Assembly (NCBI GenBank): GCA_963968885.1
Contig: CAXAGT010000002.1
Location: 843 to 64,842, forward strand
Reading direction: 5' to 3'
Length of the DNA stretch: 64,000 nt
DNA from: an uncultured Candidatus Poseidoniales archaeon
GTDB lineage: Archaea > Thermoplasmatota > Poseidoniia > Poseidoniales > Poseidoniaceae
How positions within the stretch are numbered: the stretch's first letter is position 1; every line of letters starts with the position of its first letter. Positions 18,395-45,888 of the stretch are shown one piece after another. Below the pieces are notes generated by a model. That model made no database searches. It worked only from the letters and a program-made list of their open reading frames with translations, and had not been told where the DNA came from. Made by a program: the position numbers and the translations under genes.

Positions 18395-19036
18395 TTGTCA
18401 AATAAAGTGAAATCATCAGCAGAAATGTGGGACAATAGATTTGCTGGGCAGGGATTTGCTTACGGTAAAGAACCAAATGTATGGCTAGCGGAACGCATAT
18501 CTCAAATTCCTCCTCCAGAACAAAACAAAGCATTGATTCCCGCTGATGGCGAGGGCAGAAATGCAGTCTGGTGTGCTAGACTTGGTTGGAATACTGAGGT
18601 CTTCGACCTATCTGCCCAAGGCAAAATCAAGTGTGAAATGCTAGCAGCAGAACACGGCGTAAGCGTTGATTACGAAATTGCAGATTTGAAAGACTTACAG
18701 CTTGATGAAGAACAGTTTGATTTGATAGCATTTTCATGGTTCCATACCCCAAGTACGCTGAGAAAAGAAAAATTCTGTAACTTCATGCCTGCACTAAAAA
18801 AAGGTGGGCATCTAATCACTGAGGGATACCACAAAACCCAGATGCCAATGGATTCTGGAGGACCAAAATCACTGGATTTACTCTGGGACCTAGATGAAAT
18901 TCTGGAAGAATTCCTGGACTCCCTTCCAGGAGAAGTCAAGATTGAACACGCTGCCGTTACTTCTACCATATTGGAAGAGAGTGAACTACACACAGGTCTA
19001 GCCAGAGTGGTAAGATTGCATTTGAGAAGATCCTAA
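18395..19036 (+). CDS. Class I SAM-dependent methyltransferase
   Basis: Motif I-like ALIPADGEGRNAVWCARLG and motif II-like FDLIAFSW. The TTG start lies 7 nt after GAGGAGG (18381..18387). Confidence 0.72.
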   Translation: MSNKVKSSAEMWDNRFAGQGFAYGKEPNVWLAERISQIPPPEQNKALIPADGEGRNAVWCARLGWNTEVFDLSAQGKIKCEMLAAEHGVSVDYEIADLKDLQLDEEQFDLIAFSWFHTPSTLRKEKFCNFMPALKKGGHLITEGYHKTQMPMDSGGPKSLDLLWDLDEILEEFLDSLPGEVKIEHAAVTSTILEESELHTGLARVVRLHLRRS

Positions 19037-20226
19037 TCTCTAGTGACTAGCATAGCCACAGCGTTCCCTCCACCCAAACAGAGCGAAACAATTCCAGACT
19101 TTGCGTCTTTTCTTCTCATAACACCAAGCATTGTGATTAAGCATCTTGTTCCACTTGCTCCAAGTGGATGACCTAAACTAACTGCTCCACCGTGAAGATT
19201 GAATCTATCATCTGGTATTCCAACTTCTTTAGCTACAGCACATGATGCTGCGGCAAATGCCTCGTTGTGCTCATAGACATCTACATCTAATACCTCGAGT
19301 TTATTCCTCTGCAGTAAATTATTGATTGCAGGAATTGGAGCAGCCATTACCCTCTCTGGCTCCAAACCACTGGTACAATAGTCCTCAATTGTGGCAATTA
19401 TCTCCCAGCCGTTATCTACTGCAGTTTGGTATTCTGCAACCAGTATAGCACTAGCACCATCATTCAATGTGCTTGCATTACCAGCAGTAACTCGCCCATT
19501 TTGTTTGAAGACTGGTCTTAAATTTGCTAATCCATCAGCAGTCGTTCCAGCTCTTACACCTTCGTCGACATTGAACATTAACGGCTCACCTCTCCTTTGA
19601 GGGATTTCCATTGCAAATCTCTCCCAATCAAACCAGCCGTTTGACTCTGCTTCGGTTGCAAGCCTTTGGGATCTTGCTGCAAATTCGTCCATTTGTTCTC
19701 TGCTTATCTCAAACTCATCAGAGACTACCTCGCCTGTATTTCCCATGTGCATGTCGTTGTAAACATCCCATAGTCCATCATAAATCATTGAGTCAATCAA
19801 CATTGAATCGCCCATTTTTTGCCCAAATCTTTGTTTGAATAATAGTTGAGGTGCATTGGTCATAGATTCCATTCCTCCCGCTATTACAACATTGTATTCA
19901 CCTGCTCTAATTGCGTTGGCTGCTAACATTGCTGCCTTGAGTGAGGAGCCGCATACTTTGTTTATTGTTACACATGGAGTCGATACCGGAAGTCCTGATC
20001 CTAAAGCTACTTGCCTAGCAGGATTCTGACCTGCCCCTGCTTGCAAAACTTGACCGAAGATTACCTCTTCAATCAATCCCGAGTCAGGATCTATTCCTGT
20101 TCTATTCATTAATTCCTTCACAGAAGCAACACCGAGGTCAACTGCTGAGAATGGAGATAAAGTCCCCATGAACCTGCCTATAGGAGTTCTAGCAACCCCA
20201 CAAATCACGACTCTCTTCGCTCCCAT
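19033..20226 (-). CDS. Acetyl-CoA C-acetyltransferase (thiolase II)
   Basis: Catalytic Cys in NKVCGSSLKA, then HNEAFAAAS, GHPLGASG and CLGGGNAVA. Confidence 0.95.
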   Translation of the reverse strand: MGAKRVVICGVARTPIGRFMGTLSPFSAVDLGVASVKELMNRTGIDPDSGLIEEVIFGQVLQAGAGQNPARQVALGSGLPVSTPCVTINKVCGSSLKAAMLAANAIRAGEYNVVIAGGMESMTNAPQLLFKQRFGQKMGDSMLIDSMIYDGLWDVYNDMHMGNTGEVVSDEFEISREQMDEFAARSQRLATEAESNGWFDWERFAMEIPQRRGEPLMFNVDEGVRAGTTADGLANLRPVFKQNGRVTAGNASTLNDGASAILVAEYQTAVDNGWEIIATIEDYCTSGLEPERVMAAPIPAINNLLQRNKLEVLDVDVYEHNEAFAAASCAVAKEVGIPDDRFNLHGGAVSLGHPLGASGTRCLITMLGVMRRKDAKSGIVSLCLGGGNAVAMLVTRD

Positions 20227-27594: not shown

Positions 27595-28734
27595 ATGGTC
27601 CTACCATTCCGCAGGAAAAATACTCCAGTGGAAGGCGAACAGGTTCCAGATGATAGCGAAATTTTAGAAATCGTCGACCAAATTGAAGAAGAGTTTACGG
27701 CAAATCGTAATGCTTCGCTGGAGACGGAAAGACCCGAGGATGATTCAGAGCTCACACAGAAACTAAATTCATCAGCAAAGACCGTGACTAGAATTTGTAT
27801 GGACATAAGGCGAAATGAAAATGTTTTGATTATCTGTGATCCAACCACAAGCGAAATTGGTGCGGCACTACATGAAGCAGCACTTACATTAAGCGATAGA
27901 GTGCTCCTTATGATGATGCCAAAAGGTAAGCATCATGGTGATGAGCCACCTACACCGGTTACCAATCTGATGAGACAACAAAACGTAATCATAGCACCAA
28001 CAAAATATTCGATAACCCATACCAAAGCAGCAAGAAATGCGCTTAACGAAAGGGCGAGAATTGCAACAATGCCAGGAATTACAACTAAACTATTCACTGA
28101 AGGGGGGATAACTGCAAATTTTGAATCTATCAAAGATGAAATCTCCGAGAAAGCAATAGCTCTTAGAAGAAAAAGATTCATTTCAATCAGACATGAAAAT
28201 GGCACTGATCTTAGTTTTGAGGTAGGTTGGAGAGATTGGAATCAAGATGATAATGGCATTTGTAACCGTCCAAAGATGATTACAAACTTGCCGGCTGGGA
28301 AAATCTTTGTTATGCCAAAAGAAGGAAGCATGAACGGGACCCTAGTTATCGATGGTTCATGGGATTCGAATTTAATTGAAGAAAATCTTGTCCTTCAAGT
28401 CGAAAATGGTCTTGTCATGGATATTTCTGGAGGAGACCTTGCAGTCAGAATAAAGAATGATTTTTCTCAGCATGCTCTCAAGTTACCAAAGAAAGATCAA
28501 GATTTAGTATGGACAATAGCCGAGTTCGGGATTGGTTTGAATCCAATGGCAAAATTGGTAGGAAACGCCCTTGAGGATGAGAAGTGCTATGGTTCCTGCT
28601 ACTTTTCAATGGGAGATAATTCTGCATTTGGTGGAAACGCAAATGTTGGAATAAACATGGTAGGGATAATGAAATCAGCCAACATTTATGTTGATGACAA
28701 ACCGTTTTTAATCGATGGAGAATTCAAATCTTGA
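27595..28734 (+). CDS. Aminopeptidase, M29 (AmpS/PepS-like) family, with an acidic N-terminal extension
   Basis: NVLIICDPTT near the N-terminus and TIAEFGIGLNPMAK near the C-terminus resemble M29 signatures. Assigned from memory. Confidence 0.72.
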   Translation: MVLPFRRKNTPVEGEQVPDDSEILEIVDQIEEEFTANRNASLETERPEDDSELTQKLNSSAKTVTRICMDIRRNENVLIICDPTTSEIGAALHEAALTLSDRVLLMMMPKGKHHGDEPPTPVTNLMRQQNVIIAPTKYSITHTKAARNALNERARIATMPGITTKLFTEGGITANFESIKDEISEKAIALRRKRFISIRHENGTDLSFEVGWRDWNQDDNGICNRPKMITNLPAGKIFVMPKEGSMNGTLVIDGSWDSNLIEENLVLQVENGLVMDISGGDLAVRIKNDFSQHALKLPKKDQDLVWTIAEFGIGLNPMAKLVGNALEDEKCYGSCYFSMGDNSAFGGNANVGINMVGIMKSANIYVDDKPFLIDGEFKS

Positions 28735-30396
28735 TTACTGATTTCTAGTTCCACAGATAGGACAAAATCTCCACTGTGGATCAACTCCAATTCCACATCC
28801 GCGGCAGTACATTCCAGACATAATTGTTGGTTGGAATCCTTGATTCATATTTTGATTGAAATTCTGGTTTGGAGCAAAGCCTTGGTTAAATTGTTGATTT
28901 TTGAATTGTTGGTTGAACTGTTGGTTCTGGTTCTGAAAGGCTTGGTTCATATTTTGTTGATTCATTTGATTTTGATTGAATTGTTGTTGGTTAGGATTTT
29001 GACCTTGATTAGGTAAACTCATTCCACCATGAACCGCTTGATTTTGTGACTGATTTGAAGGGGAATTTGAACCTATAGGAGGTCTTACAGGAGCAGCTCT
29101 AACTGGTTTTGGAAGATTGATCGTATTCTCTGTAGCCTGACTTGCAATAACTTCACCTAGGCTGACTGAGCCATCTCCGTCCAAATCTGCTGATTCGTGT
29201 ATATCTTTGGCCTGCTCAACTGAAATTTCCATAGCAGTTGCTATTTCTTCAACATCCAAGGTTCCGTCCCCATCAGCATCTGCAGCCTCGAACTTCTCAG
29301 CAATGCTGACAAAGTCGTCAGGGAAATCTTCGACGCTGGGTTCTTCGTCAATCACAGGTTCAGCGATCTGCTCTTGGATGATTTCTTCTGTTTCTGAAAC
29401 AACCGGGGTTTCCTTTTCTTCAACAACCGTATTTGCTGGAGCTGGTTGCCCGGTAAATGCACTAGCAAATGCATTCAAAGTAGCTTTTTCCAGTTCTCTT
29501 TCGTCTGGAGCAGGTTCCACTCTTTTCACCTCTGGTGCAGGAGTTACGCCTGTAGGCAAAGGAACAGATTCTGTTTTTTCTATATCAATTTCTTTTTCAG
29601 GCTTTGATTCTACGACTTTTTCTTTACCTGGCAATGGAACTGATTCTGTCTTTATTTCAGGTTCTTGCTTCTTTGGTTGTTGCACAGGTTTAGCGGATTT
29701 TTCAGGTTTGGGTTTTTCTTCTAGTTTAGGGACGCTAACTACTGATGGTTTGGCAGTCCCACTTGCAAGAGCAGAAACCGGAGTCAGATTTCCTGAGGAT
29801 TCAAGATTTGCTTTCAATTCTGTGGCTACTGCGGAAAGAGACTCTAGGTTAGATTCGGGATTAGAGAATAATATCTCTAATTGCTCGAGATACTTGCTGA
29901 CTTCGTTTGAGTCTCCAGTGGAGTTTGCAATTGCAAATAATTTAAGCAATTTCATTGGATCACATAATGATGATAATGAATCAATTTCGTCCTTTGAAAG
30001 ATTAGAGTTACCGGCTTTTGTATCTCCTTGAGAATTAGGAAGACCAAGATAATCACACAGATTATCTGCCATCGACATAATTCCAAGGTGACCTGCTACA
30101 AGATAGTAAATCTCTCCTCCTTCACAATTCAATGATTGACTTGCAAGTTCGAAGTCGAACTCCCCCGGCTTAAGGACTACATCACCGAGTAATGAAAAGA
30201 ATTTTTGGAATGCTCCTGCCCTTTCCATTGCCATCATAGAGTGGACTATGTCTGAAGATTCCGTTGCACCAAAATATGCTGCAGCATCATCTACATCTAT
30301 TCCATCTGGGATGGAAGCACCGGTTACCTCTCCTGCCATCTTCTCACGCCTGTCTGCCGGTATCAAGTACCCTTCTTGAGGATAGTGCCTATACAT
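28735..30396 (-). CDS. Cytoplasmic protein: unknown N-domain, Pro/Glu/Lys-rich linker, EF-hand pair, Q/N-rich tract, C-terminal zinc ribbon
   Basis: Canonical 12-residue EF loops DADGDGTLDVEE and DLDGDGSVSLGE (29152..29280). Q/N-rich tract at 28831..29064. CRGCG-x11-CPICG at 28756..28806. I saw no TM or signal sequence. Confidence 0.8.
   Translation of the reverse strand: MYRHYPQEGYLIPADRREKMAGEVTGASIPDGIDVDDAAAYFGATESSDIVHSMMAMERAGAFQKFFSLLGDVVLKPGEFDFELASQSLNCEGGEIYYLVAGHLGIMSMADNLCDYLGLPNSQGDTKAGNSNLSKDEIDSLSSLCDPMKLLKLFAIANSTGDSNEVSKYLEQLEILFSNPESNLESLSAVATELKANLESSGNLTPVSALASGTAKPSVVSVPKLEEKPKPEKSAKPVQQPKKQEPEIKTESVPLPGKEKVVESKPEKEIDIEKTESVPLPTGVTPAPEVKRVEPAPDERELEKATLNAFASAFTGQPAPANTVVEEKETPVVSETEEIIQEQIAEPVIDEEPSVEDFPDDFVSIAEKFEAADADGDGTLDVEEIATAMEISVEQAKDIHESADLDGDGSVSLGEVIASQATENTINLPKPVRAAPVRPPIGSNSPSNQSQNQAVHGGMSLPNQGQNPNQQQFNQNQMNQQNMNQAFQNQNQQFNQQFKNQQFNQGFAPNQNFNQNMNQGFQPTIMSGMYCRGCGIGVDPQWRFCPICGTRNQ
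28831..29064 (-). repeat. Coding low-complexity region (Q/N/F/M-rich, about 78 codons)
   Basis: Protein reads SPSNQSQNQAVHGGMSLPNQGQNPNQQQFNQNQMNQQNMNQAFQNQNQQFNQQFKNQQFNQGFAPNQNFNQNMNQGFQ. The plus strand shows degenerate TTG/ATT-rich periodicity. Confidence 0.8.
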
Positions 30397-30400
30397 TCAT

Positions 30401-30405
30401 CTCCT
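30401..30405 (-). promoter_or_regulatory. Shine-Dalgarno-like AGGAG overlapping the stop codon of the giant gene, 4 nt before the ATG at 30396
   Basis: Coding strand reads TAG-GAGATGA-ATG, so TAGGAG spans the stop codon and the spacer. Confidence 0.5.
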
Positions 30406-33400
30406 AATTATTTCTTGCAATCGAAATTATTGCTCTAGATTGTTCAGCATTCCATCCTGTTTGTTGCAATTGCATCAAAATTACTCGTTCTTGCTCTCCT
30501 TGACTTATTGCTTCAATAGTCCAATCCACCGCTAGTTGTCTATCTGCATCTTGACCTGAATCAAATACAGACATATCTACCTTGATATTGGCTTTTCTTA
30601 CTTTTTTACCCGCAACCTTCACGCTCTTTTTCTTGGCTACTTTGGAAGGTTGCGATTCTGCTGCTTTAACCGCTCCAGGAGGACCACGCCCTGCCGGACT
30701 AGTTGCCGGCTTCCTATTTTCAATAAACGAACTCTGCCTTTCCTTAGATGGTTGCTTTTGAGGTAATTTATTTCTTGTTTGACTACCCGGTGGGCCCCTT
30801 AGTTGTGGACTTGATTTAGGAGGACCGCCAGCAGGACCATTAGGTCTACCAGGTGGTCCGGAAGGAGACTTAGGAGAATTTCTAACAGGTGGTCTGGAGT
30901 CTTGAGAAGAGGTATTTCGCGATGGCATTGGTTTTGTTGATGAGTAAAAAGATGACATGAAATCATCCTCATCATCATCATCGTAGTAGTCGTCATCCTC
31001 ATCATCGTCATCTAAATCATAACCTCCTGAGAATACTCTTCGAATTACAATTAGAAGAAGAACCAGTCCCAACAAGGCACCTCCACCTGCTGCAAGTAAC
31101 GTTGCTAGATTTAATCCCAATAACTCGAAACCGTCGTCTCCTTGAGTTTCAGCAGGACAACCATACGGACCATCTTCCTCTTCAGGTTCAAGCGGGCATG
31201 GATCAATGAAGTCATTTAGTCCATCATCATCTGTATCTCTTTGATATGGTGCACAGCCGTTTTCATCAACAAGGGAAGCGTTATCCTGTTTTGTATCCAA
31301 ACAAAGGTCGGGATTAGTTCCGTTTGGGTTATCTCCTACAAAATCAAAGTCTCCGTCCTCCCATTGAGTGGGTTCGTCTGGAAAAGCGTCTTTGAAATTC
31401 CAATGACCATCTTGGTCATCATCAGGGCATCCAATGAAATCAACAGTTGAGTTTCCGGATTCAGATGGACAATAATCAGAATTTGAACCGTATGGATTAT
31501 CACCAAAACCGTCACCATCAGTATCATTCCATTGACTAGAATCTGCTGGGAAAGCATCTCCTGTTTGGTTTTCTCTAAGACCAGATTCTGAATTGAGTTC
31601 GTAAGTATAATTTCCGAAATAACCGTCACCGTCTAGATCCTGATCTAACTGCGATTCATCTAGACAACCAGTTGAATCAACAGGATAACCATCGGGCGTA
31701 TCGGGGCATAAATCAGATGAATCAACAACACCATCTCCGTCTGTATCCCTTTGGTTAACCGAGCAACCATTCGCATCTACAGTTGCATTAACCTCTGTTT
31801 GAGGGCAAATATCAACTGGATCTAGTACTCCATCTCCATCAGTATCTGCTTGATTTTGCTGGTCTGTACAACCAGATGAATCAACTTGGATTCCTGCTAA
31901 ACTTTCCGGGCACAAATCGATATCGTTTGTAACTCCGTCATTATCGTCATCAAGTTGGCTTTCTGCACATCCATCTAGGTCTACATTCGAACCAGCAGGC
32001 GTACCAAGGCACAAATCAAGGGAATCATAAACCCCATCTCCATCTTCATCATCAGCAATAATTAGTGGACAACCATCTCCATCAGTGCCATTCAAGACAC
32101 CTAAGACATATGGGCAAGCATCGGGATTAACTCCAGCTGGATTATCACCAAATCCGTCACCATCATAATCCCAGAACTGAGTGGATTCGAATGGCATATC
32201 ATCAGCAGCATTCGACCAACCATCTCCATCTGCATCAGGACAACCAGGATTGGAAACTTTGGAGATTACCATCTCTAATTCTTGTACATAAAATGAAACT
32301 GAGTTAAATGTTGATTCACCGTATACGGCAGGGCATCCATCTAATTCCAGTCCGCCGGAATTATTGCCTGAGTAGTTACTAGTCCAAGCATCGGGATAGC
32401 CGTCGTTATCATCATCAACTGCCGCAGCAATATTTGTTGGGAATTTGTCAGGGTTTGTAGCCCCATCACTGGAGTTATCACCGAATCCATCGCCATCAGA
32501 ATCAGACCATTGGGTTGAATCATTTGGCCACATGTCTGCACCATCTTCGACTAACCATGGGAAGGGGAATCCGTTTGGTTCGGGATCACTTGAGCCATCG
32601 CCATCACTATCAATGCAACCTCTCCTATCCCTAAACGAAACGCCGTAGTCCCAAGGGCATTCATCTCCTTCTAAACCACTCTTGTTATCACCAAAGCCAT
32701 CCCCGTCTGTATCTCTATACTGGCTGGGGTTGTAAGGGAATAAGTCAGGGACTGCATCGTCTTGGGAGGAGTGGCTGGTTACACAACAATCTGGTCCGGA
32801 GTTGTCACCATATCCATCACCATCTGAGTCAAACACCTGTTTCCAATTTCGGTCAAAGAAATCACCATTGTACCATGAACCTCTGTTGCTAGACCATCCA
32901 TCTTGGTCGGTATCTCTACATCCAAGCCTGTCAAAATAAGATAGATCACTTTCTGTAGGACAGTCATCTATCGTGTCAGGGAATCCATCGTTATCTGAAT
33001 CAGGACAACCTATCCCGTAGAAAGTGGAGGGGCCTGGCGAAGAAGGGCAAAGATCGGAGTACGGTCCGTTAGGATTGTCGCCTGCTCCATCGCCATCAGA
33101 ATCCTGCCATTGATTTCCTAAGAAAGGCAAATCATCGATTTCATCGAAGACAAGATCCCTGTCTGCGTCATGATAGAACCTCAACAAGTCCACATCCATA
33201 TCCGTTGGATCGAATAGTGTTGTGAATATCGACTGGTTGTAAATCTCAGGATGAACATCATTGCCAGCTCTAAGGTCTCCAAACTCTATGCTTCTCCAAG
33301 AATTCAATCTCAGGTCAAAGGAATTCCAAACTAAATTATCAGAGCTTGAAGAAGTGAACAAGATTATCGTATTATCATCTTTGACGACATTGAAAACACC

Positions 33401-36400
33401 ATTTGTCGAGGGAGTTGGGGCTTTGTGTGAGGTCCAAGTTTCGTCGAATGTGTGTAGAGGATACTCATTGCTGGAACCTTTTACTGCAATTACGACATCA
33501 TTGTGAACTGCTAGATCTGCTTGGAAACTACCAATAGAACCATTCGCTCTTGGTAGTGATGTTTGTGTCCAGTTTATTGAACTTGAATTCTTGTGATACA
33601 CATTTAGATTACCTAATGAATCGAGGCATGATACAAACATTGTGCCGTTGTTATCGATTGCCAAGTCTATATCACTCTGTAAATCAGTCATATCGGTAAT
33701 AACAGAAGAATTAAGTTGGTTATGGTCAAAACTCCAGACGGATAGTGTTGAATTTACTCCATCTGATTCGATTAAAGCGGTTGATATCGTTCCGTTTTCT
33801 AAAATCAATGATGGGCTAGAATCTGATACTGCATGACCGCTGCCACCTAAGTCATCAATTGCCCATGCTGAACTTGATTTGTAAAGTACTTTCAGTTGAT
33901 TAGAGGTTGTATCTCGATATGTGATGTATATTGTTCCATTATCGGCAACCATTACACTGGGATTTTCAGAAAGGGTGGTTTGAGAAATCACAAGTTCGCT
34001 ATTCCAAGAAGATACGCCCCTTGTGAACATGTAGATTTGTTGGGCAGCACTCGATGCTATTGCGATATACTGATTCCCGTTATCATCAATTGTTGAGCCT
34101 ACGAAATCCCCAAAGGATCCAGAAGAGACTAGTTCCTGTTCCAAAGCCACATAACCACTGGCCGTGACAAGGTTGATTCCATCCTCGTTAGATGATGTGA
34201 GAATCAGTGGCTTTCCTGCCGAGGTTACTGCATAAGATATATTTCCAGAGGTTTGGAATTCATATGGGTGATATGAAACCCATTTTCCGGTTGGAGTTGT
34301 ATCTTCTGTATGCTCGTAATGGGTCAAAATTGTTTGATTTTCTACCTCGCTAGTGTACAAAAGGCTAGTTTCTCCTCTGGAGGCGATTCCTACTTCAAGT
34401 TGCAAAAGTTCTCCTTGTTCTGTAAATTCAATGGAATCCCAATCTCGCTTCTCGTGGAACTGATAGGTCAATGCAAACGAACTACCTTGTGTGGTATCTC
34501 GCTTAGAAAGAGCAATTTCAGTCAGTCCATCTCCGTCTATATCAAACCCAGGCGCTATCACCATTCCAAGCATCTCTTGTTGATTTGCTCCGCTGATGAT
34601 AGTTTGAACATCCGTCCTAAAACCGTCAGGTCCGCCCAGAATTAGGTCAACTCTACCTGAACTATCTGCTTCTAATGCCATAATCAACAAATCATCATAG
34701 CCATCTTCATTGACATCTCCTGCAGGCATGAAATTCGTACCCAGTCTCTCATTTGCAGTGGAACCTGCTTTCATCCAGTATTGCGAAGTTGGCAAGGTCT
34801 CTCCTCCTTCAATCATCAAAACAGTTCCAGAGTTATATGCATCAGGATTTGTTTGATTGTACAACTCTGAAATGAATAAATCATCGTAACCATCCGAATT
34901 TATGTCACCGATGATTTCAGCTTGCCCACCAAGTAATCTCCCTTGTGCATTAGACTGAATTGTGTAGTCGGGTGTTCCATTGAAACCTGAGCCGCTAGAA
35001 TAGAATATTTCGATTGAAGAATATCCAAGTGAATTAGATTGTGTTCCTGTGTTTGTAATTACTAAATCGCCGAAACCATCTCCATTTAGGTCTCCACCAC
35101 CAGCAATACTTCTACCGAAAAATGGTCCAAATCCAGTTTGAGTTATGTTTCGCCCAAATGTTAGAGATTGACCTCCATAGTAGACCGATACTTGCCCAGT
35201 ATGATCATCTCCCGGAAGGCTGATAGTAACATTGCTTGAAAGAATTGCAAGTTCATCATCACCATCACCGTCTGCGTCTGAAAGACGTTCTAAGTCTGAG
35301 CCAAATTCATCACTAGAGTTTCCGCTTAGCATTTGATTTGAAATATTGGAAAGACCGTTTTGACTTCCGAAATAAATCTCCACTCTGGATTCACCAGGAG
35401 AACCGATTGCTAAGTCGTCAAAGCCATCTCCATTGAAGTCCCCAACAGCTAATCCTTTGCCGTAGTGAGCGTTATCCGATGAACCCTCAAGAGCGATTAC
35501 ATTTGGAGTAAGTCCACTTGAGTTTGTTTTGGTAATGAAAACTATACCTGCAGAAGTATTGTTGGAAGTATCAGCCATTGGATTTGATGCAACCACTTCA
35601 GTAAATCCGTCGCCGTCGAAGTCTGCTGAAAAGAAATTAGTTTCTTCAACATCATCCCCTAAACTGTAAGTGTCCATTTCAGAAGGAGAGATTCTGCCTG
35701 TGTCTTGACCTTCTAAAGAACGAAGTAACTCGATATTAAATGAACCATTCAGTTGATTTACAGTAGCTACTTGCTCGACATTGTCACCGTCTAGGCTCAT
35801 TCCAATAACATCAGAAAGGGTGTCACCCCTAGATAGGACCGAGTTAGTAACAACTTGCCCATCGACCTTTATCGAGCGAACTTCGTTTAAGTCCTGTCTG
35901 AAGTAAACAATGTGCACAACAGAGTTTGAATCTGATCTTAACTCAAAATCCTCTCCGACAGGACCTCGATCTAGGATTCTATCCATCCAGAAAATTCCTG
36001 TGAAATTGACCCTCCAAAGTTTTCCATCAACATCTCTGACAACAGACCATTCTCTGTCATCAACATTTACCATTTCAATATGAGTTGCATTGATGTACTC
36101 TCTCATCGTCCTAATATTCCAGCCATCCGAAGTATAAATTGAATCTTGAACGACATACCGTGCTGATTTCAAATGTGGACCATCTGCATAAACAACTCTA
36201 GGTTTTCCGTGCTCGGTCAACATCAAAGCACAATCGACTAAGCCATTTTGGAAAGTAACTGTATCCACTAGCCATGATGAAACATTGCCATCGGTTGATA
36301 CATGCGCATACATGATATCACCATCGGATTCAGACCAACACATACTCACTGATTCATCTTCGTTTAAAGCGATGTCCGGATTTCCGATTTCGGTGTTATT

Positions 36401-36673
36401 TTGATTCGGATAAAGATTACTTTCCATCCAATAATCCAAACTACCTTCGTCACGAACTGTTGCTTGGATTAATCCCTCATAATCCAAATTATCACCTGCG
36501 AATTCATGGGAATTGCCATCGCTGAATGAAACGACTAGATTAGTAGAAATCGAATCACTGAGTTCGCTTTCAGTTTCAAAGTCTATGATTGCTGGAACCA
36601 AAATTTGGATTAATAAGAGCAGTGTTAAAATTCCGCACGCACCACGGCTCTTGCTGAAATGCTTGGCGCGCAT
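30404..36673 (-). CDS. Giant single-pass surface protein: signal anchor, seven FG-GAP repeats, beta-rich region, ~20 thrombospondin type-3-like Ca-binding repeats, TM, 208-aa cytoplasmic tail
   Basis: The track ORF runs to 36853, but Met61 (ATG at 36673) precedes the signal-like MRAKHFSKSRGACGILTLLLLIQILVPA and avoids overlapping the divergent gene that starts at 36786. Repeats and tail are detailed in separate entries. Confidence 0.9.
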   Translation of the reverse strand: MRAKHFSKSRGACGILTLLLLIQILVPAIIDFETESELSDSISTNLVVSFSDGNSHEFAGDNLDYEGLIQATVRDEGSLDYWMESNLYPNQNNTEIGNPDIALNEDESVSMCWSESDGDIMYAHVSTDGNVSSWLVDTVTFQNGLVDCALMLTEHGKPRVVYADGPHLKSARYVVQDSIYTSDGWNIRTMREYINATHIEMVNVDDREWSVVRDVDGKLWRVNFTGIFWMDRILDRGPVGEDFELRSDSNSVVHIVYFRQDLNEVRSIKVDGQVVTNSVLSRGDTLSDVIGMSLDGDNVEQVATVNQLNGSFNIELLRSLEGQDTGRISPSEMDTYSLGDDVEETNFFSADFDGDGFTEVVASNPMADTSNNTSAGIVFITKTNSSGLTPNVIALEGSSDNAHYGKGLAVGDFNGDGFDDLAIGSPGESRVEIYFGSQNGLSNISNQMLSGNSSDEFGSDLERLSDADGDGDDELAILSSNVTISLPGDDHTGQVSVYYGGQSLTFGRNITQTGFGPFFGRSIAGGGDLNGDGFGDLVITNTGTQSNSLGYSSIEIFYSSGSGFNGTPDYTIQSNAQGRLLGGQAEIIGDINSDGYDDLFISELYNQTNPDAYNSGTVLMIEGGETLPTSQYWMKAGSTANERLGTNFMPAGDVNEDGYDDLLIMALEADSSGRVDLILGGPDGFRTDVQTIISGANQQEMLGMVIAPGFDIDGDGLTEIALSKRDTTQGSSFALTYQFHEKRDWDSIEFTEQGELLQLEVGIASRGETSLLYTSEVENQTILTHYEHTEDTTPTGKWVSYHPYEFQTSGNISYAVTSAGKPLILTSSNEDGINLVTASGYVALEQELVSSGSFGDFVGSTIDDNGNQYIAIASSAAQQIYMFTRGVSSWNSELVISQTTLSENPSVMVADNGTIYITYRDTTSNQLKVLYKSSSAWAIDDLGGSGHAVSDSSPSLILENGTISTALIESDGVNSTLSVWSFDHNQLNSSVITDMTDLQSDIDLAIDNNGTMFVSCLDSLGNLNVYHKNSSSINWTQTSLPRANGSIGSFQADLAVHNDVVIAVKGSSNEYPLHTFDETWTSHKAPTPSTNGVFNVVKDDNTIILFTSSSSDNLVWNSFDLRLNSWRSIEFGDLRAGNDVHPEIYNQSIFTTLFDPTDMDVDLLRFYHDADRDLVFDEIDDLPFLGNQWQDSDGDGAGDNPNGPYSDLCPSSPGPSTFYGIGCPDSDNDGFPDTIDDCPTESDLSYFDRLGCRDTDQDGWSSNRGSWYNGDFFDRNWKQVFDSDGDGYGDNSGPDCCVTSHSSQDDAVPDLFPYNPSQYRDTDGDGFGDNKSGLEGDECPWDYGVSFRDRRGCIDSDGDGSSDPEPNGFPFPWLVEDGADMWPNDSTQWSDSDGDGFGDNSSDGATNPDKFPTNIAAAVDDDNDGYPDAWTSNYSGNNSGGLELDGCPAVYGESTFNSVSFYVQELEMVISKVSNPGCPDADGDGWSNAADDMPFESTQFWDYDGDGFGDNPAGVNPDACPYVLGVLNGTDGDGCPLIIADDEDGDGVYDSLDLCLGTPAGSNVDLDGCAESQLDDDNDGVTNDIDLCPESLAGIQVDSSGCTDQQNQADTDGDGVLDPVDICPQTEVNATVDANGCSVNQRDTDGDGVVDSSDLCPDTPDGYPVDSTGCLDESQLDQDLDGDGYFGNYTYELNSESGLRENQTGDAFPADSSQWNDTDGDGFGDNPYGSNSDYCPSESGNSTVDFIGCPDDDQDGHWNFKDAFPDEPTQWEDGDFDFVGDNPNGTNPDLCLDTKQDNASLVDENGCAPYQRDTDDDGLNDFIDPCPLEPEEEDGPYGCPAETQGDDGFELLGLNLATLLAAGGGALLGLVLLLIVIRRVFSGGYDLDDDDEDDDYYDDDDEDDFMSSFYSSTKPMPSRNTSSQDSRPPVRNSPKSPSGPPGRPNGPAGGPPKSSPQLRGPPGSQTRNKLPQKQPSKERQSSFIENRKPATSPAGRGPPGAVKAAESQPSKVAKKKSVKVAGKKVRKANIKVDMSVFDSGQDADRQLAVDWTIEAISQGEQERVILMQLQQTGWNAEQSRAIISIARNN
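31190..33175 (-). repeat. Array of thrombospondin type-3-like repeats (D-x-D-x-D-G-x-x-D)
   Basis: DSDGDGAGDN, DSDNDGFPD, DTDQDGWSS, DSDGDGYGDN, DTDGDGFGDN, DDDNDGYPD, DADGDGWSN, DEDGDGVYDSLD, DDDNDGVTNDID, DTDGDGVLDPVD, DTDGDGVVDSSD, DTDDDGLNDFID and others, often flanked by Cys (CP...GC). Confidence 0.78.
34502..35640 (-). repeat. Seven FG-GAP repeats (integrin-alpha-like beta-propeller blades)
   Basis: ADFDGDGFTEVVASN, VGDFNGDGFDDLAIGSPG, LSDADGDGDDELAILS, GGDLNGDGFGDLVITN, IGDINSDGYDDLFISE, AGDVNEDGYDDLLIMA and GFDIDGDGLTEIALSK, spaced roughly 50-65 aa apart. Confidence 0.8.
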
Positions 36674-36785
36674 AAGCCTTTCACATCCACTAACATTCAA
36701 AATGCTTGTCCGTAATCGTCTAATTTGACAGAGAAGTAATTGGGTTTCAGCAACCTTCATTTCAAGGAGATTTTTCGATTTATTT

Positions 36786-37418
36786 ATGGCAACTAATTCC
36801 AAACGCGCTTTGGTAATCGCTAACGGCGAAATGCCATCTTTAGAAATTGTCAAAAATTTACTCCAAACAGCGGATTTTGTCGTCGCATGCGACGGTGGAT
36901 ATCATCATTGCAAACAATTGGAAATTTCTCCGAACCTTCTGTGTGGAGATTTTGATAGCATAGATTCTGAATTACTAAATACTGTTAACTCTGAATTTAC
37001 TGAAGTGATTCATATGCAAGATCAAGAAAAAAGCGATCTCTCAAAGACCCTTTCACATCTGAAGAATGAAGGATTTACATCGATTGATGTAATTGGAATA
37101 GACGGAGGAAGATTGGATCACCAGTTTGGAACATGGTCGTCCTTGATAGAATCGAATTCTTTTGCGACCTTGCACTACGATGATTTTATCCTTAACAGAG
37201 TTCCTGACGACACGGTTCAATTCCATACAAAATCGGGAAAAATCGTGTCATTAAACCCAATTATCACTTGTGAAGGAGTCAGCCTCGAAGGATGTAAATT
37301 CAATTTGAATGATGAATCCTTAGAAATCGGAACCAGAGGAATACACAACATAGCCTTGAATGACATAATTGAGATTAGCAAAGTTTCTGGAGAACTGCTC
37401 ATTATGATTGAGCGATAA
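36786..37418 (+). CDS. Thiamine pyrophosphokinase
   Basis: ALVIANGE, VVACDGG, LLCGDFDSI, DQEKSDLSK and GIDGGRLDHQFG. Confidence 0.85.
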   Translation: MATNSKRALVIANGEMPSLEIVKNLLQTADFVVACDGGYHHCKQLEISPNLLCGDFDSIDSELLNTVNSEFTEVIHMQDQEKSDLSKTLSHLKNEGFTSIDVIGIDGGRLDHQFGTWSSLIESNSFATLHYDDFILNRVPDDTVQFHTKSGKIVSLNPIITCEGVSLEGCKFNLNDESLEIGTRGIHNIALNDIIEISKVSGELLIMIER

Positions 37419-40535: not shown

Positions 40536-43500
40536 TCAGACATTATCCCAGTCAAACTTGTTAGGGCTTTTAGGCTCTTCATCCAGTTCGTTTGATGATT
40601 CAGCTAGAACCTCTGCTGTAGAATCTACTGCACCTGAGGCTTTCTTAACTTCTACTGGTTTAGTATCACTGGAGAATGCTCCCCAAGATTCTATCTTCTC
40701 CAATTCTATTTTCAGTTTTCTTCTTCTGGAAAAAATCGTATTCAAAGCCAATATCAGAACGATGAATCCAACTCCTGCTAAGATTATGGAAAGATTTGTT
40801 CCGTCTCCAGAATTACCTGAAACTTGTATTGTGTCACTCAGAATATCAACATAAGCATCATCTCCAGTTCCATCGATTGCAGTAATACGAATGAAGGCAG
40901 TTCCGCCTTGATTAGGAACCACAATTATGGAGCCTTCCCAAACTCCATCATCGTCTTCATCAGTCAAATTGAATTCCCAGGACTGAATTGATAAGGTCAG
41001 AGTCGCTGAAACATCTTGCGTAGAACCGTCAGGATCACTCAATTCAATTTTTACGAGTAATGAATTCTCAACTCCTTGCTCAAGAGTCTCTGGAATGATT
41101 TCCAGAGTATCAGAGAGTAGTCTTGGTAAGCTAGATTGAACGGTGAAATTTAGATGCTCTTCATTTGAATTACCTCTAGCATCTTCGACGTAAAGAGAGA
41201 GATGATGTTCTCCGCTGGGGAGGGTTATTTCTTCACTTGAACTTGATGAAAGAACTTCAAAGTTTAATTCAGATAACCATCTTCGCCATTCCCTGATAAC
41301 CATATCTCCATCCGAATCATATGATTCCTCTGATAAAAGAATCAAATCACCTGCAGGGTAGGAGAACCTATTTTCAGGAGATAGAATTGACACCACAGGA
41401 GCAGATTCCACAACATAAACATTAATTTGTTCAACTCTGGTTAAACCCGTTGAATCTGTTGCCTCTACTGTCAAAACATGGTTTCCTGCTGGTAAAGAAA
41501 ACTGACTTATTGTTTGAGGGTTAACATCTGTAAGAAGGGGATCTGTGAGCAAGTTAGAGCGAACAGATAGTGTGAAAGCGTCTCCATCATAATCTATAGA
41601 TTCCATGGCGTCAAAGTATATTTCATCAGCTGAGGTTGTGCTAAATCCTTCAAATGGAGTTGTTAAATTAATTACAGGTGCTGATTCTACAATGGATAAT
41701 TCAACAGAGGATATTACTGGAGAGTTTATTCCATCATCAAGTTCTAAAGAGATCATGTGAGAACCTGCGCTTAGCCTTTCTTCAAAAATCAACCAATCAT
41801 CTCCCTCTGGCGTTAACCTACCGTCCAAGGACGAGGACCAATTAATCTGAAGGTACTCACTTCCAGCATAAGGCTCGACTGGCGCACACCACCAATTTCC
41901 TATCTCAGGGAATGTATCACAGGCAGAATCCCAATCACCAGAACCATTTGCAGAGAATGGTATTAATTCTGAAGAATCAAAAGAGATTAGTCCAGTTGGG
42001 GTAGAAATAACGCTCATTGGAAGAGAATTTTCTACACTGAGGATCCGTGTAACGGAATTGCTTGAATTGATATGTTCCGGTCTCAAATCTGTCACCTTCA
42101 TCTCAATTGTATGAATGCCTCTGGAAAGAGTACCCATCCAAATCAAATCCGTTTGGTTTGTACCACTGTGAAGTAAACCGTCTAAGTTGGAATGCCACTC
42201 GACAGATATTGCATCTCCCTCTGGGTCAAATGTTTGGGAACCATCAAGAGTAACCACACTTTCTGAGAAATTATTGACTCTTTGAATGGTAAATGTTGGG
42301 CTTGGTATTTCATTGTATAGCTCAACATTGTAAGTTACAGTTGTTGCAGGATTTGTTCCATCATCTGCATACAAGGTAAGTTGAAACACTGATGGAACAG
42401 ATTCACTCATCGAGAGATTAAACCATATCAAATCAGGGCAACCCGAAATTGAGATATCCGAAATTGACTGGTACGAAGCCTTCACGTAACATTGCATTGG
42501 ATCGGATTCAGGGTCCATTGTTCCAGTAAAATTAACCAAAACATCAGCAGTTCTAGGTATGATTAACTCGTTCCAAGGATTTGGTGATGGAGTTAGAGTT
42601 GCTGAAATTATTGGCGGAAGATTAGCTAATTCAATCGAGCGGGTTTCGGTTACACATTGAGAATTGGTATCGCAGACTGTTAGGGTAATGTCGTGTACAC
42701 CATCTGATAATGAAATCTGAGAAGATGATGGATCATTGACTGTGAAATTATCTAGATTCGATAGTATCCCATCTATAGATGATACCCAAGAAAATGACAG
42801 CCCATCATCATCCAAATCCCAAGAGCGGCTTGCGTCAAAACTTACCGAGGATTGAGAGGGGAAAATGTCCTCATCAATTGGAGTATCCCAAATCAAGTAT
42901 GGGGGTTGGTTATCTAATGGCAATACACAATTTTCAATCTTATTTGAATCAAGATCAAATTCTGTATAATTTACAACTCCATCATAAGAGCACGATACAT
43001 TCACTGCGTTCCAAACACTTGCGCCCGAAGCCGTCCATTCTCGAGCTATGAAATCACTAGCCACTAAGGTCCCGATTTCATTAGTTCTTTGTGTAAAACT
43101 TGTGTCAAAATCTGAAAATGAAACGTTGACGTAGGCATTTGGCACACCATTAGAGCGGTTATTCAAGACCCAAATTTGCATATCAAAAGCAAGTTGAATC
43201 TTGCTTTGAGAATCTATGATCGCTGAATTCAAATCAACCCTAGACAGGTCAGGAGTCCTCAATCGAAGATTCGATGAATTGCTGACATAAACTGAATTCG
43301 AGAATGAGGAAGAAGAAAAGTTTGCATTGCTTGAATCCACGTAGAATAAGCCGGAACAAGATTCAGTTAACTCAAGTCCTGAACCAACGATATAGCGGTG
43401 GTTTTTCAATATCAAACATACTGTGCCATTTTCGTTTGAAAGTGATAAATCTGAGATAATTGAGGTCACACTGTTTGAAACTAGATTCCTTCCTTCCCAA

Positions 43501-45317
43501 TAGATTCCATTATTCTCTCCATTTACGACTAACCCATCGATTTCACCATCAGCATCTACTACTTCGATAGCATAACCTTCTCCATTCGTTCGGTTTGACC
43601 AAACCTGTGAATCGGTTAGATGAAACATCCCAGGTACACTAGCTAATCCATCAGAATCAACAAAAATTTCCGGGTGGTCTGGAGAATTATCCATAATTAC
43701 AGAATCTTCAATCCAAATGTCAACTGAATCCTCGATAAAAATTCCCGAACCAAGGTTTTCGTAAACAACACAATTCTTGCACTTAACGTCACCAGAATTA
43801 GACTCTACATCATTTGATTCGATGTAAGTCAAACCAGCTAAGTCTTGAGTCAATACCCCAGATTGACCATTCCTAAAGGATGTTAAATTGTGGAATTCAA
43901 CATATCTTGAATCGAATACTTTTGCACCAGATAATGAGTTATTTTCTAATGTCACGTTCTCGACAACTACCGATGCTGAATCAATATTAATTCCTTGCTC
44001 GCCGCTATTTTCTATGTGCCAATTAACTCCTTGAATCGCTCCTCCACTTGTTGCCCTTACACCAGGTCCGTATGAATTTTCGATGTGCAAATCATGGAAG
44101 CTAGGGGCGAAGTAGGACGACCTTACTGCAATCGATGCACTGTGTAATCCACCACTGGTATCACCAGAATCTTTTATCGTAATATTTCTAAAATTCGTTG
44201 TTGAATCGACAAAATATAATCTTACGCCAGCCGCATCAGCCCCATCTATCAGCGTATTTTCAAACCAAGCACCGCTGGCGTTTACCTCGATTGCCGCATA
44301 AGCAATCCCAGGGGTTTTCGCTCCGCTCAAACCTGTTCCTGTGACGGTTAAGTTGGTGAAATCAGCAGATTCATAATTGGTATAATTTGTATGGTTGAGT
44401 TTGTCAACATATACTCCCCTATACATTGAGTTGCTAATATCCATGTCCTTGATCACTGCTCTAGTCCTAACTGAGTCATCGATGTGCCTAACTACTATTC
44501 CTGAATCGGCACGATCTATTGTAATATTCTGCAAAAGAGGGACGGAATCCTCAACCCAAACTCCAGAAACAAATGCCCACGAAGACCCTGTTATGTTGTC
44601 AATTTCGATATCTCTGAACACACCTCCAGAGGATCCCCATATGTTTAGCGCGCTAGTCAAATGATCCGTGAACCTAGCACCGTTAACAATTGGAACTGAA
44701 CCTGCGCCTACTGATAATCCAATTCCATATCTCCAATCACCCTGCCATGGTAGATTCTTACCTGCTGAGTTCACGAATAAATTAGCGATAACGGGATTGG
44801 CTGAATACAGATCTAAACCTACTCTATCTGGATTAATCACGGTCACATTATCCAATTGAGGATTTGAAGAATAAATTGTCATCCCGTAGATCGACTCACC
44901 TATTGTCAAGTTCCTGATAACGCTCCCGCGTTGATTGGATGATTGATTGAATTGAATACCCTCATGATCACTCAATCCTGATGATGTAAGAATAACTGGA
45001 CATGTTTCACTTCCTTGAATAGTCAATCTCCCGTCAACATAGATCCTTTCACCAGATGGGAGTGTTATGTTAGTGCATGGTTGAACGATGATTTCATCCT
45101 GAACTGAGATTGTATATGATGAGGTTAGAGCAACAGTACCCGACCAGGTGGTTTGTGCTCTAGCCGATACCTCGGAAATATTCTCCTGCTCTCTAAGAGT
45201 ATCATGTGGCAGAACATTTACCAGGGTCGTTGAAAAAATCATCAACAGAACCAATCCAAAAGCGATTCCTGTGGATTTATGAGAGTTCTGCATACCTTTA
45301 GCATGAGCCTCTATCAC
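40536..45317 (-). CDS. Giant single-pass surface protein: signal anchor, parallel beta-helix region, multiple PKD/Ig-like domains, TM, 64-aa cytoplasmic tail
   Basis: Residues ~95-690 show ~22-aa periodic N/G/I-V-rich repeats typical of right-handed beta-helices (NLTIGESIYGMTIYSSNP, NVTVINPDRVGLDLYSANP...). PKD-like units include FDASRSWDLDDDGLSFSW...GVHDITLTVCD, LDGSQTFDPEGDAISVEW and FDAMESIDYDGDAF. C-terminal TM segment LSIILAGVGFIVLILALNTIF is followed by SRRRK. Confidence 0.85.
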   Translation of the reverse strand: MIEAHAKGMQNSHKSTGIAFGLVLLMIFSTTLVNVLPHDTLREQENISEVSARAQTTWSGTVALTSSYTISVQDEIIVQPCTNITLPSGERIYVDGRLTIQGSETCPVILTSSGLSDHEGIQFNQSSNQRGSVIRNLTIGESIYGMTIYSSNPQLDNVTVINPDRVGLDLYSANPVIANLFVNSAGKNLPWQGDWRYGIGLSVGAGSVPIVNGARFTDHLTSALNIWGSSGGVFRDIEIDNITGSSWAFVSGVWVEDSVPLLQNITIDRADSGIVVRHIDDSVRTRAVIKDMDISNSMYRGVYVDKLNHTNYTNYESADFTNLTVTGTGLSGAKTPGIAYAAIEVNASGAWFENTLIDGADAAGVRLYFVDSTTNFRNITIKDSGDTSGGLHSASIAVRSSYFAPSFHDLHIENSYGPGVRATSGGAIQGVNWHIENSGEQGINIDSASVVVENVTLENNSLSGAKVFDSRYVEFHNLTSFRNGQSGVLTQDLAGLTYIESNDVESNSGDVKCKNCVVYENLGSGIFIEDSVDIWIEDSVIMDNSPDHPEIFVDSDGLASVPGMFHLTDSQVWSNRTNGEGYAIEVVDADGEIDGLVVNGENNGIYWEGRNLVSNSVTSIISDLSLSNENGTVCLILKNHRYIVGSGLELTESCSGLFYVDSSNANFSSSSFSNSVYVSNSSNLRLRTPDLSRVDLNSAIIDSQSKIQLAFDMQIWVLNNRSNGVPNAYVNVSFSDFDTSFTQRTNEIGTLVASDFIAREWTASGASVWNAVNVSCSYDGVVNYTEFDLDSNKIENCVLPLDNQPPYLIWDTPIDEDIFPSQSSVSFDASRSWDLDDDGLSFSWVSSIDGILSNLDNFTVNDPSSSQISLSDGVHDITLTVCDTNSQCVTETRSIELANLPPIISATLTPSPNPWNELIIPRTADVLVNFTGTMDPESDPMQCYVKASYQSISDISISGCPDLIWFNLSMSESVPSVFQLTLYADDGTNPATTVTYNVELYNEIPSPTFTIQRVNNFSESVVTLDGSQTFDPEGDAISVEWHSNLDGLLHSGTNQTDLIWMGTLSRGIHTIEMKVTDLRPEHINSSNSVTRILSVENSLPMSVISTPTGLISFDSSELIPFSANGSGDWDSACDTFPEIGNWWCAPVEPYAGSEYLQINWSSSLDGRLTPEGDDWLIFEERLSAGSHMISLELDDGINSPVISSVELSIVESAPVINLTTPFEGFSTTSADEIYFDAMESIDYDGDAFTLSVRSNLLTDPLLTDVNPQTISQFSLPAGNHVLTVEATDSTGLTRVEQINVYVVESAPVVSILSPENRFSYPAGDLILLSEESYDSDGDMVIREWRRWLSELNFEVLSSSSSEEITLPSGEHHLSLYVEDARGNSNEEHLNFTVQSSLPRLLSDTLEIIPETLEQGVENSLLVKIELSDPDGSTQDVSATLTLSIQSWEFNLTDEDDDGVWEGSIIVVPNQGGTAFIRITAIDGTGDDAYVDILSDTIQVSGNSGDGTNLSIILAGVGFIVLILALNTIFSRRRKLKIELEKIESWGAFSSDTKPVEVKKASGAVDSTAEVLAESSNELDEEPKSPNKFDWDNV

Positions 45318-45654: not shown

Positions 45655-45888
45655 ATGGCTATTGGATTCGTATTGATTACAACTGAACCTGGAAGAGAAA
45701 AAGATGTTAGGGAAGCGATTGAAAAAATAGAACTGGTCACAAATCAGTGGCTGCTGTTTGGCGCCTACGACTTAATCGCAAGAGTGCAAGCAGATGATGA
45801 AATCACACTAACTCAGTGCATAGTAGAAGAGATAAGAACCACTAAGGGAATAGCTGATACTAAGACCCTGATTGGCGCTGAACTTTAA
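45655..45888 (+). CDS. Stand-alone Lrp/AsnC ligand-binding (RAM) domain protein, paralog of the upstream gene
   Basis: MAIGFVLITTEPGREKDVREAIEKIELVTNQWLLFGAYDLIARVQADD...TKGIADTKTLIGA. I chose the start at Met10 of the track ORF because of the SD element. Confidence 0.8.
   Translation: MAIGFVLITTEPGREKDVREAIEKIELVTNQWLLFGAYDLIARVQADDEITLTQCIVEEIRTTKGIADTKTLIGAEL

Follow-up and report, generated by a model that had tools for sequence, protein, structure and literature searches.

Integrin-type propellers built from FG-GAP repeats are documented in bacteria (PMC3192720), 'thrombospondin genes' are widespread in the Poseidoniales, where they have been linked to adhesion (Rinke et al. 2018, PMC6461757), and families with calcium-binding domains specific to the MGIIa or MGIIb subgroups of Marine Group II (MGII) have been described (Méheust et al. 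2022, PMC9258230). The present analysis concerns two neighbouring genes on a 64,000-nucleotide (nt) stretch of DNA from an uncultured Candidatus Poseidoniales archaeon (contig CAXAGT010000002.1; hereafter the window): one encodes a giant surface protein with FG-GAP and thrombospondin type 3 (TSP3)-like repeats, and the other, downstream of it on the same strand, a small cytoplasmic protein carrying an EF-hand pair and a predicted zinc ribbon. The Poseidoniales are the most abundant planktonic archaea of surface oceans and are uncultured, and to our knowledge their envelope and attachment biology is essentially a blank. The papers found, PMC6461757 among them, describe neither this giant gene nor its cytoplasmic domain, and likewise neither the family next to it nor the pair. 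The reading favoured on balance is that these are two clade-specific MGII genes, conserved as co-oriented neighbours and separately expressed, whose products have a partnership that is optional or absent.

With integrin alpha-type FG-GAP proteins, bacterial homologues included, the giant shares a type-I membrane topology, a tail in the cytoplasm and seven FG-GAP repeats whose calcium loops read D-x-D-x-D-G. The Pfam FG-GAP model matches it in five stretches (E 5.9e-17), and D-x-[DN]-x-[DN]-G loops at amino acids (aa) 351, 412, 466, 528, 590, 653 and 711 mark seven tandem repeats of ~60 aa, a spacing consistent with a seven-bladed propeller of the integrin alpha type. The giant differs from integrin alpha in having a calcium loop in every blade, in a propeller flanked by other propeller-like regions and by 18 TSP3-like repeats, and in a long tail of 212 aa that ends in an orphan three-helix domain. 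Moreover, no I-domain is seen, neither a beta-subunit partner nor Calf or Thigh leg domains were found in Pfam and NCBIfam scans of the giant and its neighbours, and the tail holds no GFFKR- or NPxY-like motif. An earlier annotation of the window, made by a model from the letters alone (the sequence-only reading), had called the protein integrin/thrombospondin-like; the FG-GAP propeller bears this out, the features of integrins proper do not, and the thrombospondin part is a likeness in loop motifs.

The TSP3 assignment is made because of the number of these motifs and of sub-threshold NCBIfam matches to the TSP3-type proteins MtsC, TraB and PA1041, Pfam TSP_3 not being reported for the giant at E<=0.1. 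Tandem TSP3-like repeats and a putative role in adhesion are shared with the surface proteins MtsC and TraB of Myxococcus and the PA1041 family of Pseudomonas, but the resemblance is confined to the level of the repeats (40.5 bits for MtsC, against a cut-off of 350), and the giant is anchored by a C-terminal transmembrane (TM) helix with a cytoplasmic domain rather than by MYXO-CTERM, a lipoprotein anchor or OmpA. Only this helix and a hydrophobic N-terminal signal exceed a hydropathy of 1.8, in agreement with the single-pass protein proposed from the sequence, although its tail is four residues longer than the 208 aa then given. In its great size, single copy, conservation across the order, signal peptide and C-terminal TM anchor, and in its location near GT2 and GT4 glycosyltransferases and a second giant surface protein, the predicted envelope protein also recalls archaeal S-layer-type glycoproteins. 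These lack a long conserved tail in the cytoplasm such as that of the giant, and scans of the giant detected no S-layer domain family.

Conservation of the gene pair was assessed at 169 interpretable loci from the Poseidoniales and relatives, comprising GTDB species loci, targeted look-ups and the results of a metagenome scan seeded on the most distant members. An orthologue of the giant (37-45% identity over ~1850-2100 aa) lies directly upstream of the small gene, on the same strand, at 79 of the 80 GTDB species loci, the remaining one having no upstream DNA, and the tail domain of the giant directly precedes the small gene at 150 of the 169 loci. The gene order is also unchanged around two matches to the tail domain on long contigs. 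The pair stands within a collinear block of genes for LnbN, thiamine pyrophosphokinase (TPK), the giant, the small protein, an M29-like peptidase, an M32 carboxypeptidase, an amidohydrolase and others beyond, and because this whole block is collinear, the adjacency of the giant and the small gene is not specific to the two of them. In L087 and L089, where the outer genes have been altered, linkage is equally tight for all three of TPK, the giant and the M29-like gene.

The other 19 loci, drawn from two or more lineages, have no giant, and the small gene stands there between TPK and the M29-like gene. Hence the supposition that the small gene always lies directly downstream of a giant is upheld by the GTDB loci within the Poseidoniales, but fails at these 19. 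The small proteins encoded there keep the N-terminal domain (N-domain), the LPKPV-type motif and the ribbon, and nothing about the small protein was found to depend on an adjoining giant. With a giant upstream, the EF pair is present at 104 loci and lacking at 46; with TPK upstream and no giant, it is lacking at all 19 and present at none. In a midpoint-rooted neighbour-joining tree of the N-domain, 15 giant-less sequences form a single cluster that is basal under this uncertain root, while the giant-less lineage L083/L084 is nested among giant-linked forms, which implies that the giant was lost or relocated at least once. The core function of the small protein would appear, from these distributions, to require neither the giant nor Ca2+.

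Independent expression is suggested by the junction between the two genes. As the sequence-only reading reported, the stop codon of the giant, TAG at 30406..30404, is followed after 7 nt by an ATG at 30396..30394, the junction reading TAGGAGATGAATG, with AGGAG 4 nt before that ATG. This had been taken as the start of a 553-aa small protein under tight translational coupling, and neither the start nor the coupling withstands comparison with relatives. When the giant stop and the small-gene start were placed in 57 related loci plus the window, a conserved start codon (mostly ATG, with some GTG or TTG) was found 13-19 aa before an invariant VD[DE]AAAYFG, at stop-to-start gaps of 51-89 nt; in the window this codon is ATG 30339, 64 nt after the giant. 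In the alignment, the first residue of most homologues corresponds to M20 of the 553-aa version. The 19-codon extension from ATG 30396, to which the stretch MYRHYPQEGYLIPADRREK is specific, is almost certainly not translated, because the +7 ATG occurs only in the window (there is none at that spot even in L001, a relative with 84% identity), because of the range of gaps, and because in many loci the reading frame does not stay open immediately before the conserved start. The AGGAG overlaps the stop codon of the giant and is not conserved; judged across these loci, it is a lineage-specific coincidence. Stop and start codons that overlap or lie a few nt apart, as translational coupling would entail, are therefore not a feature of this junction in relatives.

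A conserved box, ATCCTCAAGAAGG in the window, precedes the small gene. Equivalents are found ~32-46 nt before the start in relatives (CATCATCCTCAAGAAC, GGGCTTAAATGG, ACCTCAAAAAC) and also, as AAGCCTCAATAAGGAG or ATATACTCAAGAAG, at giant-less loci where a divergently oriented TPK gene lies upstream; since the box is present without a giant upstream, it belongs to the small gene. The position of the best A/T-rich hexamer, taken over 96 non-redundant upstream regions, has its peak at -45..-36, and a strict version of the box pattern occurs at -52..-34 in 28 of the 96, compared with 1.06 expected from shuffled sequences (maximum 5), and only 4 times elsewhere. A purine- and G-rich run resembling a Shine-Dalgarno (SD) sequence recurs across the family at -15..-6, where the G fraction is 0.46-0.58. 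The simplest reading is that the box represents an archaeal TATA-like element, which would drive a short SD-bearing leader.

Two observations on other promoters and spacers can be set beside this. A TTGAATA-like box lies 21-29 nt upstream of many genes in the window (for example those at 5887..6564, 9466..10347, 19033..20226, 27595..28734, 30404..36673 and 58066..58758), which suggests that the usual promoter of this genome yields mRNAs that are leaderless or have very short leaders. The giant is one of these genes: its mechanically called open reading frame (ORF; 30404..36853, - strand) reaches back to TTG 36853 and overlaps the start of the TPK gene, but the start is most plausibly ATG 36673 (MRAKHF...), which has a TTGAAT box 27 nt upstream, the same box at the same distance as at other genes of the window. 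In the spacers of Poseidonia-type loci (L028, L033, L023 and L029), a short G+C-rich hairpin (e.g. GGCCA-GCGG-TGGCC), at about -30..-15 from the start of the small gene, follows the TTAAAT box.

Homologues of the small protein number in the hundreds and all come from metagenome-assembled genomes of Candidatus Poseidoniales/Marine Group II, with 40-46% identity over most of their length; when GTDB species, represented by one genome each, were scanned with a pattern, 224 genomes proved to contain a relative. The alignment has a conserved order of N-domain, proline-rich linker, ..AF.GAF motif, acidic linker, EF pair, LPKPV..PVR.P, Q-rich repeat tract and an invariant ribbon of the form QPTI.SG..C..CGIG.DP.W.FCP.CG. 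The protein has a net charge of -44 and no hydrophobic segment (maximum 19-aa hydropathy 1.06), so that the earlier statement that it lacks a TM helix and a signal stands. An AlphaFold2 (AF2) model from an alignment of 76 sequences contains three confident regions, namely the N-domain, the EF pair and the ribbon, and ~200 disordered residues. Searches with the N-domain of Pfam, NCBIfam, PDB profiles and Foldseek (PDB, BFVD) returned no relatives, and an exhaustive hidden Markov model (HMM) search over 1.84 billion proteins (as cluster representatives) gave only 119 matches; on this showing the N-domain family is a small, clade-restricted orphan. One homologue, P0061, is labelled 'septum formation inhibitor MinC' by JGI, which was rejected as an automatic mis-annotation, there being no MinC signal in any scan. 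A 5'-end metatranscriptome from the Red Sea (PMC5069720) includes highly expressed disordered MGII proteins, none of them assignable to the two genes.

The EF pair is the one part of the small protein for which profile and Foldseek searches of the PDB return relatives. In common with prokaryotic calmodulin-like EF pairs, it consists of two helix-loop-helix units with canonical 12-residue loops, DADGDGTLDVEE and DLDGDGSVSLGE; three Pfam models score above their gathering cut-offs (EF-hand_5, 30.7 against 25.9; EF-hand_1, 30.1 against 25.4; EF-hand_7, 31.1 against 30), profile matches to calmodulin lobes have E values of ~1e-9 to 1e-11, the predicted local distance difference test score (pLDDT) exceeds 90 and the top Foldseek matches are calmodulin lobes. 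The two canonical loops seen in the sequence-only reading are thus confirmed. What sets the protein apart from such systems is that a single EF lobe sits inside the long disordered linker of an otherwise EF-free family, between an orphan N-domain and a predicted zinc ribbon. The EF-bearing proteins form essentially one clade, and members without the pair, both giant-linked (P0135, P0149, P0153, P0156) and giant-less (P0157, P0162, P0165, P0171), retain the N-domain, the LPKPV motif, the ribbon and the other conserved elements, a pattern that points to a late addition of the EF pair in one subclade that includes the window.

The prion-like tract described for the window has the Q/N-rich composition claimed for it and is disordered in the AF2 model, but it is not conserved as such, relatives having Q/W/P-, Q/A- or P/A-rich linkers at the same position. 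As the EF pair is confined to one clade and the linker varies in composition, 'Ca-binding, prion-like adaptor' is a description of a subclade and not of the family. All four cysteines of the C-terminal ribbon are invariant in 76 sequences, the spacing being CxxC-x10-CxxC and not the CxxC-x11-CxxC first read from an otherwise correctly recognised element. Pfam Zn_ribbon_3 scores 18 bits, under its cut-off of 27, and the AF2 ribbon consists of short strands with pLDDT 70-79; the invariant cysteines support the prediction of a zinc ribbon though the Pfam score is sub-threshold. In general, the domain calls of the first annotation were right, and its gene model and tight coupling wrong.

Two further features of the small gene itself can be recorded. 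Its 3' end meets that of the M29/NicX-like peptidase gene (27595..28734, + strand) at 28734/28735 with zero spacer between the convergent stop codons, so that the 3' ends of the two genes must overlap or abut; this convergent adjacency was kept in every locus examined, with or without a giant. A 274-aa ORF (29207..30031, + strand), antisense to the disordered middle of the protein, is most likely a mechanical artefact of low-complexity coding sequence.

The cytoplasmic tail of the giant has, in an alignment of 50 complete giants, the order TM helix and RR, D/E/Y-rich run, disordered P/G/S-rich stretch, basic run and C-terminal domain of ~55 aa. This last domain is strongly conserved (F...Q..DR..AVDW....GE.ER.ILMQLQETGW.A.QSRAI), is present even in the most distant giants and is modelled by AF2 as a three-helix bundle with pLDDT >90, yet no relatives were found by Pfam, NCBIfam, PDB-sequence or Foldseek (PDB, BFVD) searches, the best Foldseek E being 3.3. 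A profile search for the domain in other architectures returned 116 matches, every one a short piece of the C-terminus of a giant whose gene call had been broken. The assemblies behind L092, L173 and L174 are of low coverage or from long reads and split the giant and its neighbours into many short gene calls; as a result of such breakage, public collections hold the tail domain as dozens of spurious 'proteins' of 56-140 aa. A domain so well conserved, placed at the tip of a long flexible tail, speaks for a binding partner in the cytoplasm. No motif of the tail covaries with the presence of the EF pair in the small protein: K[VIT][RK][RK][AST] precedes the three-helix domain at 87 of 100 loci with the EF pair and at 23 of 40 without it, and both classes have basic runs.

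The favoured reading can be put as follows. The giant would be a core envelope or adhesion protein, exported by means of its N-terminal signal and anchored by the single TM helix, with an ectodomain of several beta-propeller-like regions, the seven-blade FG-GAP propeller among them, and a stalk of 18 TSP3-like repeats. In sea water, Ca2+ would occupy its ~25 predicted loops and stiffen the ectodomain for the binding of particles, polymers or other cells, and its three-helix end domain may be the docking site for a cytoplasmic partner. The small gene, starting at ATG 30339, would be transcribed mainly from its own TATA-like box ~40 nt upstream, giving a short SD-bearing leader. Its product is pictured as a soluble, very acidic and largely disordered protein with a core of all-alpha N-domain, two short motifs and zinc ribbon, probably a multivalent scaffold or adaptor, into which one subclade, including that of the window, appears to have inserted a calmodulin-like EF pair that may add Ca2+ responsiveness.

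Several points weigh against this account. Architecture is the only basis on which functions are proposed for the two proteins; the box could be the site of a regulator rather than a TATA box; and co-transcription from the promoter of the giant, or read-through, is possible because there is no T-run terminator in the spacer after the giant. Giant-less lineages might carry a giant elsewhere in the genome. Finally, co-orientation, a spacing that is always short and a shared clade restriction are what would be expected of a functional pair.

The last of these points leads to the alternative that fares best, which is tenable but doubtful: a receptor-adaptor module in which the small protein docks on the tail of the giant, through the three-helix domain and/or the basic and acidic runs, and so links a Ca-dependent ectodomain to the cytoplasm, with modulation by Ca2+ in the EF subclade and a separate promoter that tunes stoichiometry. 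Such a module would account for a pair that stays adjacent and co-oriented at most loci down to ~40% identity in the N-domain, even where the outer flanks are altered, for the confinement of both families to the same clade, and for a strongly conserved, folded tail domain that must bind something. Covariation between the two proteins gives a divided answer. When three housekeeping neighbours are regressed out of the distance matrices, the residual correlation of the N-domain is much higher with the giant ectodomain (r 0.69) than with the M29-like protein (0.10) or TPK (0.25). The branch-based test of rate covariation is more appropriate than this correlation, and in it the N-domain and ectodomain (r 0.38) do no better than a control of N-domain and LnbN (0.44), while the value for the tail is 0.06. 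Positive support for an interaction consists of adjacency and nothing beyond it, and TPK and the M29-like gene are equally tightly syntenic, the small gene persists with all the motifs of its family where there is no giant, and no tail feature tracks the EF pair. Neither NPxY, FERM, PTB nor any other known receptor-adaptor element is present, no FERM/PTB-type domain being found in the small protein by Pfam, PDB profile or Foldseek; any likeness to integrin-talin-type coupling is one of analogy.

A fuller version of the same idea, an outside-in link in Marine Group II in which the Ca-stiffened integrin-like giant recruits the neighbouring scaffold through its three-helix domain, and in which the scaffold of the Poseidoniaceae-type subclade has gained a calmodulin-like Ca2+ switch, is considered unlikely. 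So too, in our estimation, is the opposite possibility, that the small protein is a nucleic-acid-binding or regulatory zinc-ribbon protein, or some general cytoplasmic factor, with no connection to the envelope, and that the giant was inserted or retained in a very stable region. Whether or not a giant is present, the small gene does hold the slot between TPK and the M29-like gene, under a conserved upstream box of its own, and the four-cysteine ribbon is its most conserved element besides the N-domain; a basal giant-less cluster would also fit. However, no DNA- or RNA-binding domain was detected, the strong negative charge argues against direct binding of nucleic acid, the midpoint root that makes the cluster basal is uncertain, and the nesting of L083 among giant-linked forms fits loss of the giant better than its ancestral absence. 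Very improbable, and largely refuted by the comparison with relatives, is a single operon, with translation of the small gene coupled to that of the giant through the 7-nt TAGGAGATGA-ATG and with a small protein that is a Ca-dependent self-associating adaptor by virtue of its EF hands, prion-like tract and zinc ribbon: the junction exists, the strand is shared and there is no obvious terminator, but the ATG and AGGAG are missing at all other loci, the frame is often closed, the 19-codon extension overlies the conserved non-coding box, and neither the EF hands (absent from 46 giant-linked and 19 giant-less loci) nor the Q/N composition is a constant of the family.

On the reading favoured here, general expectations are not overturned, and the orphan domains and the conserved tail offer entry points to the envelope biology of the Poseidoniales. 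The giant, single-copy, syntenic, order-wide and equipped with a conserved putative docking domain, is a prime candidate for the main envelope or adhesion component, and the small protein is a concrete candidate for the partner of its tail. Were the two to interact, they would represent a rare case of a prokaryotic surface receptor wired to a cytoplasmic scaffold, and an outside-in link would give archaea a counterpart of the coupling between adhesion receptors and adaptors, made from domains without known relatives. If they do not interact, the gene model is still corrected, in its start codon and in a probable promoter of its own, and two orphan domains worthy of structural study have been defined. 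The coordinates of the features are collected in Table 1.

Table 1. Features of the giant gene, the small gene and the spacer between them, in window coordinates
Feature	Position	Strand	Basis or remark
Giant surface protein gene	30404..36673	-	2089 aa from ATG 36673; stop TAG 30406..30404
FG-GAP region, aa ~340-760	34394..35656	-	Pfam FG-GAP and spacing of Ca-loop motifs
TSP3-like calcium-binding repeat region, aa 1191-1830	31184..33103	-	18 D-x-D-x-D-G loops, at aa 1191-1813
Single TM helix, aa 1856-1877, then RR	31043..31108	-	Hydropathy scan
Acidic D/E/Y run of tail, DLDDDDEDDDYYDDDDEDDF	30959..31018	-	Composition kept in all giants, including EF-less lineages (L087)
C-terminal three-helix domain of giant, after basic run	30407..30580	-	Alignments and AF2
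Intergenic spacer, 64 nt, giant stop to conserved small-gene start	30340..30403	-	Locus comparison
Conserved box ATCCTCAAGAAGG, -44..-32 from ATG 30339	30371..30383	-	Equivalent boxes in relatives
TTGATAC, -27..-21 from ATG 30339	30360..30366	-	Putative element; resembles the TTGAATA box at ~-27 before many window genes
Small cytoplasmic protein gene	28735..30339	-	Most likely 534 aa; MAGEV start at ATG 30339
All-alpha N-terminal domain, aa ~27-200 of 534-aa protein	29740..30261	-	Invariant CEGGEIYYL.AGHL; AF2 pLDDT >90
EF-hand pair, aa 345-406, calmodulin-lobe-like	29122..29307	-	Pfam, PDB profile, AF2, Foldseek; absent in distant family members
Linear motif LPKPVRAAPVRPP, family consensus LPKPV..PVR.P	29077..29115	-	Alignments
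Q/N-rich disordered tract, 59% Q+N over 75 aa	28825..29049	-	Composition, AF2
Predicted C-terminal zinc ribbon, QPTI.SG..CRGCGIG.DP.WRFCP.CG	28738..28824	-	CxxC-x10-CxxC

The surroundings of the pair contain other surface proteins. A second giant of 1593 aa (40536..45317, - strand), with right-handed beta-helix, PKD and Big_13 signals, has a relative at the same position in L083 and adjoins GT2 and GT4 glycosyltransferases and an Lnb_N-domain protein; the neighbourhood of the two giants looks like a conserved envelope-related region. Beyond TPK, another conserved co-oriented pair is found in L083 (5300..9279), L085 (5590..9226), L087 (1..2569) and L089 (1..2281), in which a TSP3-repeat surface protein of 784-900 aa with a C-terminal TM helix is accompanied by a single-TM protein of 417-450 aa that has the motif W..HPDG..DW.D....W at its cytoplasmic end. 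Unrelated to the pair, a 772-aa STAND/NB-ARC-type NTPase is encoded beside uvrC at 45885..48203 (- strand).

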